Positions 45,760 to 50,100 are shown, counted from the stretch's first letter. The stretch: 52,042 bases of DNA from Parcubacteria group bacterium Gr01-1014_17 (GCA_007376285.1 VMFZ01000002.1:1-52042), one strand, 5' to 3'. Numbers and translations are program-made. Notes: generated by a model not told the origin, from the letters alone.

Positions 45760-46953
45760 CTATCTTCTTAACACCCTGTCAATTTTCCACGCAATCTCCC
45801 GAAAGTCCTTTTCTTTTTTTCCGCGCGTGGTTTCTGCGGCACTGCCGAGGCGTATTCCGGAGGGGTCCACGGGACTCCGTGTGTCAAAAGGAATTGTATT
45901 TTTGTTCACAATAATACCAGCTTTTTCCAGCCGCTCACTGGCATCCTTGCCAGTGAGCGACTGCCCTGAGCTTGTCGAAGGGCAGCCGCCCATCCACACA
46001 TCAACCAAGAGAAGATGGGAATCAGTACCGCCGCTTACAATGCGCCAATCAAGTTTCTTTAGTTCGTCCGCAAGTACTTGCGCATTTTTTATTACTTGCG
46101 CCGCGTACTTTCGAAACGCTGGCGTACTCGCCTCTTTAAGTGCAACTGCAACTGCTGCTATTTGATTGAGATGTGGACCACCTTGCATCCCTGGGAAAAC
46201 TGCTTTGTCTATTTTCTTATCTAACTCTCTATTATCTTTGCGAGAAAAAATCAAAGCTGCGCGCGGACCACGGAGTGTTTTGTGCACTGTAGTCGTTACA
46301 ACATCTGCGTACAGAAACGGGCTCGGATATACCCCTCCAGCTACCAGCCCTCCAGTGTGCGACATATCTACCATTAAATACGCACTGCATGAATCAGCTA
46401 TTTCGCGGAACTTTTTGAAATCAATCGTACGCGAATACGCGGTAAAACCTGCGACAATGAGTGCGGGCTTTTCGCGTGTGGCAATATCTTTTAACTCTTC
46501 GTAATCCAGCGTTTCTGTATTTTGAGCAACGCCGTACGGAACTTGTTGCCACATCTTTCCGGAAATAGAGACCTTATGCCCATGCGTCAGATGCCCACCG
46601 TGCGCGAGCGACATTCCCATAATTTTTCCTCCTTGCGGAACAAGCGCGAGATACACCGCAACATTTGCCGGCGAGCCGGAAAGCGGCTGGACATTCACGC
46701 TCCATTCGCTCGGAGAAAGTTTAAAAAGTTTGAGCGCGCGCTCTTTTGCAAGATTTTCTATTTTATCCATCACCTTATTTCCGCCATAATACCGCGCCCC
46801 CGGATACCCTTCGGCATACTTATTCGTCAGCTCGCTCCCGAGCGCCTCAAGCACATCTTTGGACACATAATTTTCCGACGCGATAAGATTAATGACGCTT
46901 TTCTGTCGTTTCTTCTCGGCATCTATGAGTTTTTTGATTTGAATGTCTTTCAT
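45760..46953 (-). CDS. glyA: Serine hydroxymethyltransferase
   Basis: LIASENY, NKYAEGYPG.RYYGG, GGHLTHG, TTTVHKTLRGPR. Confidence 0.98.
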   Translation of the reverse strand: MKDIQIKKLIDAEKKRQKSVINLIASENYVSKDVLEALGSELTNKYAEGYPGARYYGGNKVMDKIENLAKERALKLFKLSPSEWSVNVQPLSGSPANVAVYLALVPQGGKIMGMSLAHGGHLTHGHKVSISGKMWQQVPYGVAQNTETLDYEELKDIATREKPALIVAGFTAYSRTIDFKKFREIADSCSAYLMVDMSHTGGLVAGGVYPSPFLYADVVTTTVHKTLRGPRAALIFSRKDNRELDKKIDKAVFPGMQGGPHLNQIAAVAVALKEASTPAFRKYAAQVIKNAQVLADELKKLDWRIVSGGTDSHLLLVDVWMGGCPSTSSGQSLTGKDASERLEKAGIIVNKNTIPFDTRSPVDPSGIRLGSAAETTRGKKEKDFREIAWKIDRVLRR

Positions 46954-46956
46954 AGT

Positions 46957-47592
46957 TTATATAATATATTTTTTCAGTTCTGCGGCAAGCGCTTTGGTTA
47001 CTGTGTCAAATTGTGGGTTTGCATCAATTGTAGAGTGCGGGACTTGTTTAAAAAAATCCAGAAGCCCGCGGCGCATTCGTGTGTGAAATTGCACATCGCG
47101 TTCGTCAAAATGGTTGAGTTTTTCTCCTGTTTGTTGTTGTTTGCGCGACAAACCAACGCGCGGCTTCACATCAAGGAAAAAATAACGGGCTGGCACATAC
47201 TTTCCTAAATAAAACCGACGCATCTCCCAGAAAAAGCCCTTGAGTTCGGATGCCTTTTGCGCAAAAATCTGGTACGCATAAGTAGACGAATCAAACCGGT
47301 CTACAAGAACATTTTGCCCTCGCGCGAGAGCCGGAATAATAGTATTTTTCAAATGGTCTGCCCGCGCCGCCCAAAACAAAGCGAAGTGTGTCTTGGCGTC
47401 CGCCTGTCCTGCATTTTTTGAATTAAGAATAATGGAACGAATCTCTTCGGCGTACGGAGAACCGCCCGGCTCGCGTGTAATTAAAACGCGCACACCAAAA
47501 TACTCTTGAATCTTGCGTATTTGAGTGCTTTTCCCTGAACCCTCGCCGCCTTCTAGAACAAAAAATTTGCCTTTTTTATTTTTCATAATCAC
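46957..47592 (-). CDS. tmk: Thymidylate kinase
   Basis: EGGEGSGKSTQ, TREPGG, DRFDSSTYAYQ. Confidence 0.95.
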   Translation of the reverse strand: MIMKNKKGKFFVLEGGEGSGKSTQIRKIQEYFGVRVLITREPGGSPYAEEIRSIILNSKNAGQADAKTHFALFWAARADHLKNTIIPALARGQNVLVDRFDSSTYAYQIFAQKASELKGFFWEMRRFYLGKYVPARYFFLDVKPRVGLSRKQQQTGEKLNHFDERDVQFHTRMRRGLLDFFKQVPHSTIDANPQFDTVTKALAAELKKYII

Positions 47593-48044
47593 CTTTTTGT
47601 ATTAAAGAGCTTTTCACTTCCTTCAAGAAGATACACATTTTTTATGCCGGCGGCAAGCATCGCGTCCCAGCACGGCTTACAACACCACCAGTGGCCGTAT
47701 AAATATAAATCTGCGCCACGAGTATCTTCGCCATGCGAAATGGCATCTTCAAGCGCTTTCGGTTCGCTGTGATTTTTCGGATTGCATCCTTCGCAAAGGT
47801 CATAGCGCTCTCCTGTTGGAATGCGCTGGCGCACCCGCTCACAGCCGTGCTCTTGGTGATACCTATTGCCGTTTGCGCCCTGTCCTATAATGCGTCCATT
47901 CTTTACCACGACACTGCCGGTTTTCTGAAAATCATCCAATGAATGCGCGAGTGCATACTCATGCGCAGCGCGCATAAATTGGTTGTCCGCAGAAACATAT
48001 TCAACAGTTCGCCCTTCCGGAAGATATGGGTATTGAATGGCCAT
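47589..48044 (-). CDS. dCMP-deaminase-like zinc deaminase (start probably MAIQYP)
   Basis: GSVVVKNGRIIGQGAN, CER..PTGERYDLC, HSE, CKPC, AGIKNVY. Confidence 0.85.
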   Translation of the reverse strand: MAIQYPYLPEGRTVEYVSADNQFMRAAHEYALAHSLDDFQKTGSVVVKNGRIIGQGANGNRYHQEHGCERVRQRIPTGERYDLCEGCNPKNHSEPKALEDAISHGEDTRGADLYLYGHWWCCKPCWDAMLAAGIKNVYLLEGSEKLFNTKR

Positions 48045-48072
48045 AAGAAACAGCATATAGTATAAAATCACT

Positions 48073-48909
48073 ATGACAAAATTTGATGGGATTTATCAGG
48101 ATATGATTCGGCGCATTATGCTCGGAGGCATTGCAGAAGTGAACCAGCGAACTCGCCACGAAACGCGCGCCATCCCAGGTATGCACTTTTCCGTAGATAT
48201 TGAAAAAGATGGCTTCCCACTCATAACACTTCGCAAAATACCGATTCAGATGTTTGTCGCGGAACAATTATGGTTTATTTCTGGCAGCCGCAAGCCCGAA
48301 GATTTCCTCCGCGAGTTCACCAAAATCTGGGACGACTTCACCAATCCCGGCGATGTCGTAACGGTTGCCTATGGCTACCGGTGGCGGAAGCATTTCGGGC
48401 GTGACCAGTTGGGACTGCTTGTTAAACTTCTTGAAAAAGACCACAGCTCGCGACATGGCGTTGTGGTGGCGTGGGACCCATCTGGCGACGGGCTCGGCGG
48501 CGTGGTAAAGAAAAATGTGCCATGCCCATATACATTTACAGTTAATATAATCGGTGATCGGCTTAATCTACATAATATTATTCGTTCGAACGATATCATA
48601 CTTGGAACGCCATCGGATGTTGCCGGTTTCGCTCTCCTCCAATGCATCCTTGCGCAACGATTGGGAGTAAAGCCCGGCATTTATAGCCATTCAATTTCCA
48701 ACGCGCACATTTACGACACGCACTATTTTGCCGCAGAAGAAATCTTGCGTAGGAGCAATGAACATAAAAGAATAATCCTAAACCTTCCGCTAAAAACATT
48801 TGGGCGCGCGGAAAAGAAAGACCGGAAATTAGTTAAAGAAATTGTTGAAAATCTACAAATCCAATACCACCCACTTGAACCAATCAAAGGAATTAAAATT
48901 GTGCTATAA
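48073..48909 (+). CDS. thyA: Thymidylate-synthase-family protein with a dCMP-type Asp at the specificity site
   Basis: FPLITLRK, YGYRWR, DQL, PC151, RSND, D182 (Asn177 equivalent), AHIY. Confidence 0.88.
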   Translation: MTKFDGIYQDMIRRIMLGGIAEVNQRTRHETRAIPGMHFSVDIEKDGFPLITLRKIPIQMFVAEQLWFISGSRKPEDFLREFTKIWDDFTNPGDVVTVAYGYRWRKHFGRDQLGLLVKLLEKDHSSRHGVVVAWDPSGDGLGGVVKKNVPCPYTFTVNIIGDRLNLHNIIRSNDIILGTPSDVAGFALLQCILAQRLGVKPGIYSHSISNAHIYDTHYFAAEEILRRSNEHKRIILNLPLKTFGRAEKKDRKLVKEIVENLQIQYHPLEPIKGIKIVL

Positions 48910-48917
48910 CATAATCT

Positions 48918-49550
48918 ATGGCGATACTGACCAAAAAAGGAATTCTTGAACGCGTTGCAAAAAAAGAAATCGGTTTCTCGCCGAATCTTGACACATTCCA
49001 GCTACAAGACCACGCGGTTGACTTGCGGCTCGGCTTCACCTTTCTCATTCCAAAAATTTGGCATCTTACAGAAAAAGGGCGCGAGTCGTTGGATATTCTC
49101 AATTTTGATAAAGTGAATGCGGAATATTTTGAGGTGGTAGAGCTTGAGCATGGGCAATATTTTGACCTCTTGCCGCACGAATATGTGCTCGTGGTTACAC
49201 TTGAATCAATAAAAGTGCCGAACGATTTGATGGCGGTTTTATACCCTCGCTCGTCTACCAACCGCAAAGGACTCTCGCTGGACCTCACCGGCATCATTGA
49301 TTCCGGCTATGAAGGTCAACTAACGCTTCCAATACGAAATAACACGGCATCGCAAATCGTGCGACTCTACCCTGGGGAACGGCTGTGCCAAGTCGTATTT
49401 GAAGAACTCACCGAGCCCGTGAGTCCGCAAAAGAGCAAGTACCATAAGCGCGACATTATAGAGGGCATCAAACGGGAAAAAGCGATTGAGTCGCGCCTTA
49501 TATTAAAGGGAGATATAAAAAAACTGAAAGCGGAACATGCGGTAAAATAA
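48918..49550 (+). CDS. dcd: dCTP deaminase/dUTPase-family protein lacking the catalytic Glu
   Basis: VDLRLG, RSSTNRKGL, IDSGYEG, LYPGERLCQ; P138 in place of Glu. Confidence 0.85.
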   Translation: MAILTKKGILERVAKKEIGFSPNLDTFQLQDHAVDLRLGFTFLIPKIWHLTEKGRESLDILNFDKVNAEYFEVVELEHGQYFDLLPHEYVLVVTLESIKVPNDLMAVLYPRSSTNRKGLSLDLTGIIDSGYEGQLTLPIRNNTASQIVRLYPGERLCQVVFEELTEPVSPQKSKYHKRDIIEGIKREKAIESRLILKGDIKKLKAEHAVK

Positions 49551-49554
49551 CTTC

Positions 49555-50100
49555 GTGCAAGCAAAAATCAGTATTATAGTTGCAGTCGGAAAAAACAACC
49601 GCGCTATCGGGAAAACGGGTGCGCTCCTTTGGCGCATTTCGGACGACCTAAGGCGTTTCAAAGAGCTCACGACCGGACATCCGATTATTATGGGCCGCAA
49701 GACCTTTGAATCCATCGGCAAGGCACTCCCGAACCGCACAAACATAGTTATAACGCGCAATCCCGATTTTAAACATGCCCGCCGAGGAGGCGTGGCGGAA
49801 GGAGTAATTGTCGCGTCATCGTTGGAGAATGCGATTGGTCTCGCAAGGTCGGACCTTGAATCGGGAAAAAGGTCCGACCTTAAAGACCCTGAAATCTTTA
49901 TTATTGGCGGGGGAGAAATTTACCAGCAAGCGCTTCCGCTTGCCGACAAACTTTATCTCACGCTCGTAGAAAGCGACGCCGAGGGCGACACTTTTTTCCC
50001 CGACTGGCGTAATGACTTTACGAAAGAGGTCTTCCGCGAAGAGCGCATCGACCCCAAAACCGGACTGAAATATGTGTGGGTTGATTTGGAACGCGCGTAA
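49555..50100 (+). CDS. folA: Dihydrofolate reductase
   Basis: LLWRISDDLRRFKELT, IMGRKTFESI, LPNRTNIVITR, IIGGGEIY, GDTFFP. Confidence 0.96.
   Translation: MQAKISIIVAVGKNNRAIGKTGALLWRISDDLRRFKELTTGHPIIMGRKTFESIGKALPNRTNIVITRNPDFKHARRGGVAEGVIVASSLENAIGLARSDLESGKRSDLKDPEIFIIGGGEIYQQALPLADKLYLTLVESDAEGDTFFPDWRNDFTKEVFREERIDPKTGLKYVWVDLERA

Follow-up and report, generated by a model that had tools for sequence, protein, structure and literature searches.

The locus described here raises the question of which nucleotide a bacterium may use as the source of its thymidylate. In the textbook routes, thymidylate is made by ThyA or by ThyX, both starting from dUMP. The window, i.e., the whole stretch of DNA that was analysed, comprises 52,042 nucleotides (VMFZ01000002.1:1-52042) and corresponds to contig C14 in the assembly of Parcubacteria group bacterium Gr01-1014_17 (GCA_007376285.1), a member of the Patescibacteria (610 kb, 30 contigs, 96% complete). 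At positions 45760-50100 it holds a cluster of six open reading frames (ORFs) in two divergent arms, whose families are confirmed by Pfam and NCBIfam. The minus arm carries glyA, tmk and the gene of a zinc deaminase, and the plus arm carries a thymidylate synthase (TS) homologue, called here ThyA-like, a Dcd-like gene and folA. With somewhat better than even confidence, we read this cluster as a chromosomal housekeeping module in which deoxycytidine nucleotides are the source of thymidylate and the usual order is reversed, with methylation coming first and deamination after. The reading starts from what is directly observed, namely the gene content, the residue changes, their conservation, the co-occurrence of the genes and the lack of another thymidylate synthase.

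The proposed pathway includes five steps, in which every substrate and product is assigned from the sequences, the structure models and the gene context. First, the Dcd-like protein would hydrolyse dCTP to dCMP and pyrophosphate, and perhaps also clear dUTP or 5-methyl-dCTP (5m-dCTP). Second, the ThyA-like protein, with Cys151 as the nucleophile and Asp182 binding the cytosine, would convert dCMP and 5,10-methylene-tetrahydrofolate (methylene-THF) into 5-methyl-dCMP (5m-dCMP) plus dihydrofolate (DHF). Third, the divergent zinc deaminase would convert 5m-dCMP into dTMP, which in the fourth step could be phosphorylated by Tmk to dTDP. Finally, dihydrofolate reductase (DHFR) and GlyA would close the folate cycle, with GlyA regenerating methylene-THF. 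The linkage of folA fits such a scheme because reductive methylation yields DHF, and the canonical, clustered Tmk fits because dTMP is the proposed product. The first-pass annotation of this DNA had suggested the same order of events, with recycling by DHFR and GlyA and with Tmk acting on dTMP, and this is still the best-supported reading. The synthase has residues of the type found in phage Xp12.

In the ThyA-like protein (278 aa; 48073..48909, plus strand; PF00303, Thymidylat_synt, 161 bits), the segment lgtpsdvagfall aligns to lgvpfniasyall of the solved ThyA structures, which places Asp182 at the position of Asn177 of the Escherichia coli enzyme. Cys151 takes the nucleophile position, Pro152 stands for E. 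coli His147 and a Phe for E. coli Trp83, and the ThyA catalytic set of Cys146, Arg166, Asp169, Tyr94 and Glu58 is entirely kept. The changes of His147 to Pro and of Trp83 to Phe were absent from the first-pass annotation. Across the family, Asp occupies position 177 in 81/81 sequences, and position 147 is Pro in 77/81 and Leu in 4/81. The protein scores below every ThyA equivalog cut-off of NCBIfam, the best match being NF002497 (125.8 vs 327), with TIGR03284 at 107.6 vs 108.35. According to the available text of PMC8670742, residue 177 decides between dUMP and dCMP specificity, and position 147 also differs in the TS of cytosine-modified contigs. The exchange of Asn177 for Asp turns the E. 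coli and L. casei TS to dCMP, and the natural Asp-type enzymes tested give 5-methyldeoxycytidine (5mdC) or 5-hydroxymethyldeoxycytidine (5hmdC), as stated in the accessible parts of PMC8670742 and bioRxiv 10.1101/2024.12.05.627091; the portion consulted of the latter also describes that the Xp12 TS and 5/7 tested Asp-type TS made 5mdC in vivo.

In a residue table of 27 family rows, D177 and F83 are present in 27/27, with P147 in 22/27 and V147 in 5/27, and the combination of D177, P147 and F83 recurs in 5/5 phage TS (Xp12, PaMx28, Tedan, Donnerlittchen, and AMA2). The ThyA proteins of other Patescibacteria keep N177 in 39/39 and H147 in 37/39, and none of the 39, which consist of the 20 best non-family matches and 19 hand-picked weaker ones rather than a random draw, has P147 together with F83. 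A TS match was obtained in 3942 phage records, and the top 30 of those listed all come from Xp12-type phages (identity 33-40%, E from 1e-38 to 1e-46) with hosts in Xanthomonas, Stenotrophomonas, Pseudomonas, Achromobacter, Janthinobacterium and Ruegeria; the Xp12 TS itself matches at 35% identity (E 3e-42). The 150 nearest representatives of 50%-identity clusters built from 1.84 billion proteins have Asp at this position in 125 cases, a gap in 8 and Asn in 17, with no Asn ahead of the ranks 76-100. In a quick maximum-likelihood tree (IQ-TREE), which omits two partial rows (L160 and L161), the family, the Xp12 phages and the canonical enzymes each form one clade, with SH-like approximate likelihood ratio test (SH-aLRT) values of 96, 99 and 91. 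The ThyA-like protein bears the dCMP-methylase signature of the Xp12 type and is proposed to be a dCMP C5-methyltransferase.

The Asp at position 177 is also found in gp42 of phage T4, and the ThyA-like protein could in principle be a dCMP hydroxymethylase of that type, feeding a hypermodified base. Such a function is hardly credible here. At the other two positions gp42 has T147 and V83, and it stands on a very long branch of the quick tree. The hydrophobic C-terminal tail (..KIVL) is kept in the ThyA-like family, as in ThyA (..PVAI), whereas the T4 dCMP hydroxymethylase is without it. Hydroxymethylation yields THF rather than DHF, which does not match the linkage of folA to the cluster, and no glycosyl- or other transferase genes are found within the six-gene cluster.

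A separate observation concerns ThyA proteins of unusual length (330-353 aa), which form a group in the loci L148, L149, L151, L152 and L155 of other Patescibacteria. They keep N177 and H147, and their phosphate-binding set is altered (R21E, R126K, R127S). In L148, L149, L151 and L155, the stretch fetched with the ThyA gene also includes a DCD-like gene without the Glu (motif GELTFAFANV).

The neighbouring Dcd-like protein (210 aa; 48918..49550, plus strand; PF22769, DCD, 116 bits; TIGR02274, 118 bits vs a cut-off of 92.8) is altered as well. Its motif gqltlpirnn aligns to gqitlelfn of the solved Dcd and DCD-DUT structures, with the catalytic Glu138 replaced by Pro138. Pro occupies this position in 72/75 family rows, and the other 3 are gaps in truncated loci. 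The structure alignments and these counts, along with Asp in 81/81 synthases, bear out the paired changes (ThyA Asn to Asp, Dcd Glu to Pro) reported earlier for this locus, and such changes are not chance mutations. The dUTPase motifs II and III, PRSSxNR(K/R)G and I(I/V)DxGY, are kept in the family. The structure model has a predicted local distance difference test (pLDDT) score of 82.8, and its nearest folds are E. coli Dcd and the DCD-DUT enzymes of B. halodurans and M. tuberculosis. In Foldseek, E. coli Dcd matches at E 2.5e-15, within a Dcd/DCD-DUT range of about 1e-14 to 1e-15, and the Glu-less archaeal dUTPases match more weakly (E 6e-12 to 2e-9). We propose that the protein acts as a pyrophosphatase of dCTP (and/or dUTP, 5m-dCTP) without deaminase activity. 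In two sampled genomes (loci L129 and L132), the canonical ThyA with Asn adjoins a Dcd with Glu; thus, the paired change separates two states of one gene pair.

The source genome has a second DCD-like paralogue of 259 aa, which adjoins ndk on contig C13 (L003:1129-1908, plus strand). It contains a long insertion and a Lys at the Glu138 position, and scores 91.8 with TIGR02274 vs the cut-off of 92.8. This protein is also an unlikely candidate for deamination.

The third enzyme, a zinc deaminase, belongs to the dCMP-deaminase superfamily (47592..48044, minus strand; 151 aa from the ATG at 48044; PF00383, dCMP/cytidine deaminase domain, 45 bits). Its zinc motifs, H-S-E and C-K-P-C, are conserved, with H101 in 79/81 rows and E103, C131 and C134 in 80/81, and the family has an extra invariant Cys trio besides the zinc ligands. 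The score is below the ComEB equivalog cut-off (TIGR02571, 30.8 vs 219). The AlphaFold2 model (pLDDT 93.8) is nearest in fold to dCMP deaminases, the RibD deaminase domain and TadA, and the nearest solved dCMP deaminases are those of S-TIM5, S. mutans, T4, PBCV-1 and human. The allosteric motif of dCMP deaminases, given as G(Y/W)N(A/G) in the available text of PMC12088426, has lost its aromatic residue, as the source protein reads G-A-N-G and the family consensus is GANxS. The same excerpts state that human DCTD accepts 5m-dCMP and that the XP-12 deaminase converts 5m-dCTP to dTTP. The cluster deaminase is proposed as a candidate 5-methyl-dC nucleotide deaminase.

The genome surrounding the cluster offers no other thymidylate synthase. 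In the source genome (96% complete), one ThyA-like gene and one PF00383 deaminase are present, and neither ThyX, a second ThyA nor a canonical small Dut is found; for thymidine kinase, there is no match above the cut-off. An evenly drawn sample of 401 Patescibacteria genomes, which includes the unpublished non-carrier genome G150, contains 17 carriers of the Asp-type synthase, the source genome among them. In the 16 other carriers, the search gave one ThyA-like match per genome, and in 15 of them no ThyX was found. The absence of canonical thyA, thyX and dut, named in the first-pass annotation as something to look for, was observed in the source genome and, as regards the synthases, in nearly all carriers (no second ThyA in the 16, no ThyX in 15); several carriers have an extra small dUTPase-like gene. 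The one carrier with ThyX, G355, encodes it in a 786-aa protein (L105:8182-10542, plus strand), in which a thymidylate kinase domain is followed by two ThyX domains and whose gene lies directly after the cluster deaminase.

The pathway had also been described as uracil-free, never making dUMP or dUTP, which is an overstatement. Ribonucleotide reductase (RNR) is present in 13/16 other carriers, and the reading of a cell with no uracil nucleotides was rejected on that count. Besides the extra small dUTPase-like genes, G327 and G004 have one more DCD-like gene, with a score above the DCD cut-off, and uracil-DNA glycosylase (UDG) is present in 16/16 other carriers; therefore, uracil nucleotides are not abolished. 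UDG was not found in the source genome. A loss of this enzyme tied to the cluster was considered and rejected, as its presence in all the other carriers and in 333/401 genomes of the phylum sample leaves no link. What the carriers are missing is a dUMP-using thymidylate synthase, rather than uracil nucleotides.

The deaminase, ThyA-like and Dcd-like genes form a trio that is conserved across genomes, as the first-pass annotation had anticipated. In one scan, at least 313 species-level genomes match the family, and a related set of 80 loci from species-level genomes was compared for gene order. The deaminase lies divergently upstream of ThyA-like in 80/80 of these loci, with a median distance between match ends of 50.5 nt, and Dcd-like follows ThyA-like in 63/63 loci with at least 1.5 kb downstream (74/80 overall). 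The outer genes are more variable: glyA is present in 57/61 and tmk in 34/61 loci with at least 3.5 kb upstream, and folA in 30/52 with at least 3 kb downstream. In the 16 distant carriers (47-71% identity), the gene order is shuffled, and the trio persists in reshuffled form in carriers at only 47-59% identity. Their fetched loci contain Dcd-like in 12/16 and the deaminase in 11/16, and G304 has both together on another contig. In several of them tmk or folA adjoins the cluster (tmk in G026, G020 and G355). At the level of whole genomes, the Dcd-like query gives a bimodal distribution over the 401 genomes, with 15 matches at 44-100% identity and the rest at 43% or below (E 1e-21 or weaker). 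The Pro-type form is found in 14/17 carriers of the Asp-type synthase and in one other genome only (G160). The deaminase, at E<=1e-12, occurs in 14 genomes, i.e., 13/17 carriers and one other (G367). Related genomes do not count as independent, so such co-occurrence figures are descriptive.

Two contigs filed as viral in IMG/VR (L177 and L178) contain a family-type TS (57-61% identity) and, close to it, DCD-like and deaminase genes that are both far more diverged; the contigs could come from phages of these bacteria, or could be pieces of bacterial DNA filed wrongly. In G160 (97% complete), the Pro-type Dcd-like gene lies directly 3′ of a canonical ComEB-like dCMP deaminase (L170:8131-9232), and neither a ThyA-like gene nor ThyX was found in this genome.

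Several observations weigh against the reversed order. A dUTPase, a dCMP deaminase, ThyA, DHFR, GlyA and Tmk are also an ordinary Gram-positive gene list. The specificity of the ThyA-like protein is deduced from three residues and a 33-40% similarity to phage enzymes, and the branching order of the family, the Xp12 phages and the canonical clade is a trichotomy in the quick tree, which does not establish the family as sister to Xp12. The known Glu-less DCD-fold enzymes among the matches in the Protein Data Bank (PDB; 8y1w, 9ln0/9ln3, and 2zdc) are all dUTPases, so the Dcd-like protein may clear only dUTP. Compared with the Xp12 deaminase by BLASTP, the cluster deaminase gives E 0.054, i.e., no detectable kinship beyond the superfamily. 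The Dcd-like gene was not found in three carriers (G105, G180, and G083), and no deaminase match at E<=1e-12 in G327, G267, G105 and G083, of which G327 has an adjacent copy at 31%; G160 and G367, on the other side, have Dcd-like or the deaminase without any ThyA-like gene. In G355 the Tmk-ThyX-ThyX fusion stands beside the cluster. Finally, no RNR was found in the source genome with PF02867, PF13597 or tblastn with the RNRs of two relatives, and neither Cmk nor a deoxynucleoside kinase was found in it; with no RNR and no Cmk, its dCTP source is not accounted for.

One rival to this reading is an ordinary route with an odd ThyA, in which the deaminase converts dCMP to dUMP, the Dcd-like protein does no more than a dUTPase would, and dUMP is still methylated by the ThyA-like protein despite Asp182. 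Such an arrangement is unlikely, even if the canonical Gram-positive route uses exactly these six families and the nearest solved relatives of the deaminase are dCMP deaminases. The structures solved for DCD-fold proteins without the Glu are those of dUTPases, and as RNR is present in 13/16 carriers, dUTP must arise and needs clearing. Since the known Glu-less enzymes are archaeal dUTPases, dCTP, dUTP and 5m-dCTP are all candidate substrates of the Dcd-like protein, and its sequence does not single out dCTP, as assigned earlier. The residues of the synthase speak for the other side: Asp177 switches the E. coli and L. casei TS to dCMP, and the natural Asp-types give 5mdC or 5hmdC in the cited excerpts, and P147 with F83 is common to the Xp12 dCMP methylases and present in none of the 39 canonical Patescibacteria ThyA. 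The Pro-type Dcd-like protein is nearly confined to genomes with the Asp-type synthase, which is not expected of an ordinary dUTPase, and G327 and G004 have their further DCD-like gene over the DCD cut-off.

The level at which 5-methyl-dC would be deaminated is a second point of divergence. The first-pass annotation had placed this step at the monophosphate, but it may also take place at the triphosphate: the one phage enzyme characterised in the available text of bioRxiv 10.1101/2024.12.05.627091, mSCD-B5, takes 5m-dCTP and is inactive towards 5m-dCMP. With the Xp12 deaminase also acting on 5m-dCTP, and with the bacterial gene module parallel to the phage one, the route might run from dCMP through 5m-dCMP and 5m-dCTP to dTTP, as in Xp12, with the Dcd-like protein checking the dCTP or 5m-dCTP pools. 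Deamination at the triphosphate is quite unlikely in this bacterium. A canonical dTMP kinase is clustered, and direct formation of dTTP would not need Tmk; no Cmk-type 5m-dCMP kinase was found in the source genome; and the cluster deaminase and that of Xp12 are not orthologous. A search of the deaminase against phages gave only 5 weak matches, none of them in Xp12-like phages.

On the minus strand, glyA (45760..46953) encodes a serine hydroxymethyltransferase of 397 aa (PF00464, 536 bits; NF000586, 529 bits vs a cut-off of 335) and tmk (46957..47592) a dTMP kinase of 211 aa (TIGR00041, 130 bits vs 83). On the plus strand, folA (49555..50100) encodes the DHFR of 181 aa (PF00186, 168 bits). The divergent six-gene cluster described earlier is found with the same families and boundaries, and so is the distance of about 28 bp between its arms. 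The longest deaminase ORF (47589-48071) begins at a GTG at 48071, 1 bp short of the ThyA-like ATG at 48073; the conserved start at ATG 48044 (MAIQYPYLPEG) leaves an intergenic spacer of 28 bp (48045..48072) between the deaminase and ThyA-like starts. Sigma-70-like hexamers face both ways at 48033-48061 (plus) and 48079-48052 (minus). The region contains 7 promoter-like sites vs 6.9 expected by chance, which makes the promoter scan uninformative. The cluster is flanked by genes of arginyl-tRNA synthetase, a YvcK/CofD-like protein, ribosomal protein L11 and NusG; therefore, it lies in the core chromosome and not in a prophage. A prophage origin was rejected on these core-gene flanks and the conserved chromosomal synteny.

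The same core position matters for the possibility that the main role of the cluster is the supply of 5m-dCTP, with 5-methylcytosine (5mC) replacing much or all of the chromosomal C, as in Xp12, and T being a by-product. This purpose is served in phages by the closest characterised relatives of the ThyA-like protein, where a dCTP-destroying pyrophosphatase stands beside the TS. For the bacterium it is very unlikely, as the cluster belongs to the housekeeping core and forms the only T route, tmk is clustered, and no 5m-dCMP kinase was found. Site-specific C5 DNA methyltransferases (MTases), which would be redundant on fully methylated DNA, are at least as frequent in carriers (6/17) as in the phylum sample (69/301 genomes), which is weak evidence because the counts are small and MTases are mobile. 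The source genome itself has an intact C5 DNA MTase in a likely restriction-modification unit. We give an equally low probability to the broader proposition of a Patescibacteria branch without dUMP-dependent thymidylate synthesis and with a chromosome consisting largely or wholly of 5mC made before replication, with T drawn from the same 5-methyl-dC pool. The MTase in question, of 381 aa, lies on contig C27 (L169:510-3177) together with a convergent 293-aa ORF without a Pfam match and a LexA/S24-like regulator, and this unit is likely a type II restriction-modification system.

If the reversed order is true, a large and widespread bacterial lineage would use a third route to thymidylate, through 5m-dCMP, and have no other de novo source of T. 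The annotations "thymidylate synthase" and "dCTP deaminase" in the carrier genomes would then be misnamed, and two matching substitutions in adjacent enzymes (Asn to Asp in one, Glu to Pro in the other), joined by a recruited deaminase, would have rewired a core pathway. Such a module would link phage DNA modification to a cellular housekeeping pathway, whichever the direction of transfer, and would provide new 5mC-handling enzymes for biotechnology, i.e., a methylase, a pyrophosphatase and a deaminase. Should bulk pre-replicative 5mC also be true, it would make this the first case of a base substituted before replication in a cellular organism.

The idea of the pathway is not new for phages. 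A route of phage Xp12 through 5-methyl-dC nucleotides was reportedly described by Kuo et al. and by Wang and Ehrlich in 1982. Both are cited on XP-12 in the available text of PMC12088426, and a 2024 preprint (bioRxiv 10.1101/2024.12.05.627091) proposes, in its accessible part, the same pathway for 5mC phages; therefore, the pathway was already known for phages, and the notion of an unprecedented route was rejected. In the literature searched, such a cluster or an Asp-type TS was not found for Patescibacteria, the candidate phyla radiation (CPR) or any cellular organism; the supplementary contig list of the preprint, which lay outside the search, could include such bacteria. What is new here is the cellular, chromosomal and apparently sole housekeeping version, in which the pyrophosphatase and the deaminase are non-orthologous and tmk and glyA are attached.

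Among the known systems, the closest are the phage modules. In Xp12, the gene row consists of a HAD-type hydrolase, TS, a dCMP deaminase and DHFR; in PaMx28 and Donnerlittchen, a nucleotide pyrophosphohydrolase, TS, a deaminase and DHFR; and in AMA2 and Tedan, TS is followed by the deaminase. Natural fusions with an Asp-type TS are found among metagenome proteins; the partner is a dCMP-deaminase domain in P0147 and a MazG-like PRA-PH pyrophosphohydrolase domain in P0156. The phage modules and the fusions support the view that dNTP pyrophosphatase, dCMP methylase and deaminase form one unit of three enzymes. The bacterial cluster resembles the Xp12-type module in its TS homologue with D177, P147 and F83, placed beside a deaminase, DHFR and a dNTP pyrophosphatase, and, in the proposal, in obtaining T nucleotides by deaminating a 5-methyl-dC nucleotide. 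It differs in that it stands in a cellular chromosome, with ribosomal and tRNA-synthetase genes around it, and seems to be the only route to thymidylate. The slot of the pyrophosphatase, taken by MazG or HAD proteins in the phages, is filled by a Glu-less DCD-fold protein, the deaminase comes from a different clade, and the cluster also takes in tmk and glyA. The TS identity is only 33-40%, and full replacement of C by 5mC, as in Xp12, is not indicated in the bacterium.

A more distant parallel is provided by phage T4, whose gp56 is a dCTPase-dUTPase. As with gp56 and gp42, hydrolysis of dCTP would feed dCMP to an Asp-type TS homologue, but T4 hydroxymethylates without reduction and for DNA modification, and gp42 differs at positions 147 and 83. 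The archaeal DCD-family dUTPases (Thermococcus pacificus 8y1w, P45 9ln0/9ln3, and Sulfolobus 2zdc) share with the Dcd-like protein the DCD/dUTPase fold and the missing deaminase Glu, whereas the bacterial protein belongs to a separate Pro-type clade tied to genomes with the Asp-type synthase.

With the canonical cycle of ThyA, DHFR and GlyA, supplied by Dcd or by dCMP deaminase, the cluster shares the folds, the folate cycle and the net chemistry, which in both routes converts a deoxycytidine nucleotide and methylene-THF into dTMP, DHF and NH3. Pairs of dcd and thyA genes also occur in other Patescibacteria, as in the canonical system. Unlike the canonical enzymes, the synthase carries Asn177Asp, His147Pro and Trp83Phe and the Dcd-like protein Glu138Pro; from these changes it follows, in our proposal, that the order of methylation and deamination would be reversed relative to the canonical cycle.

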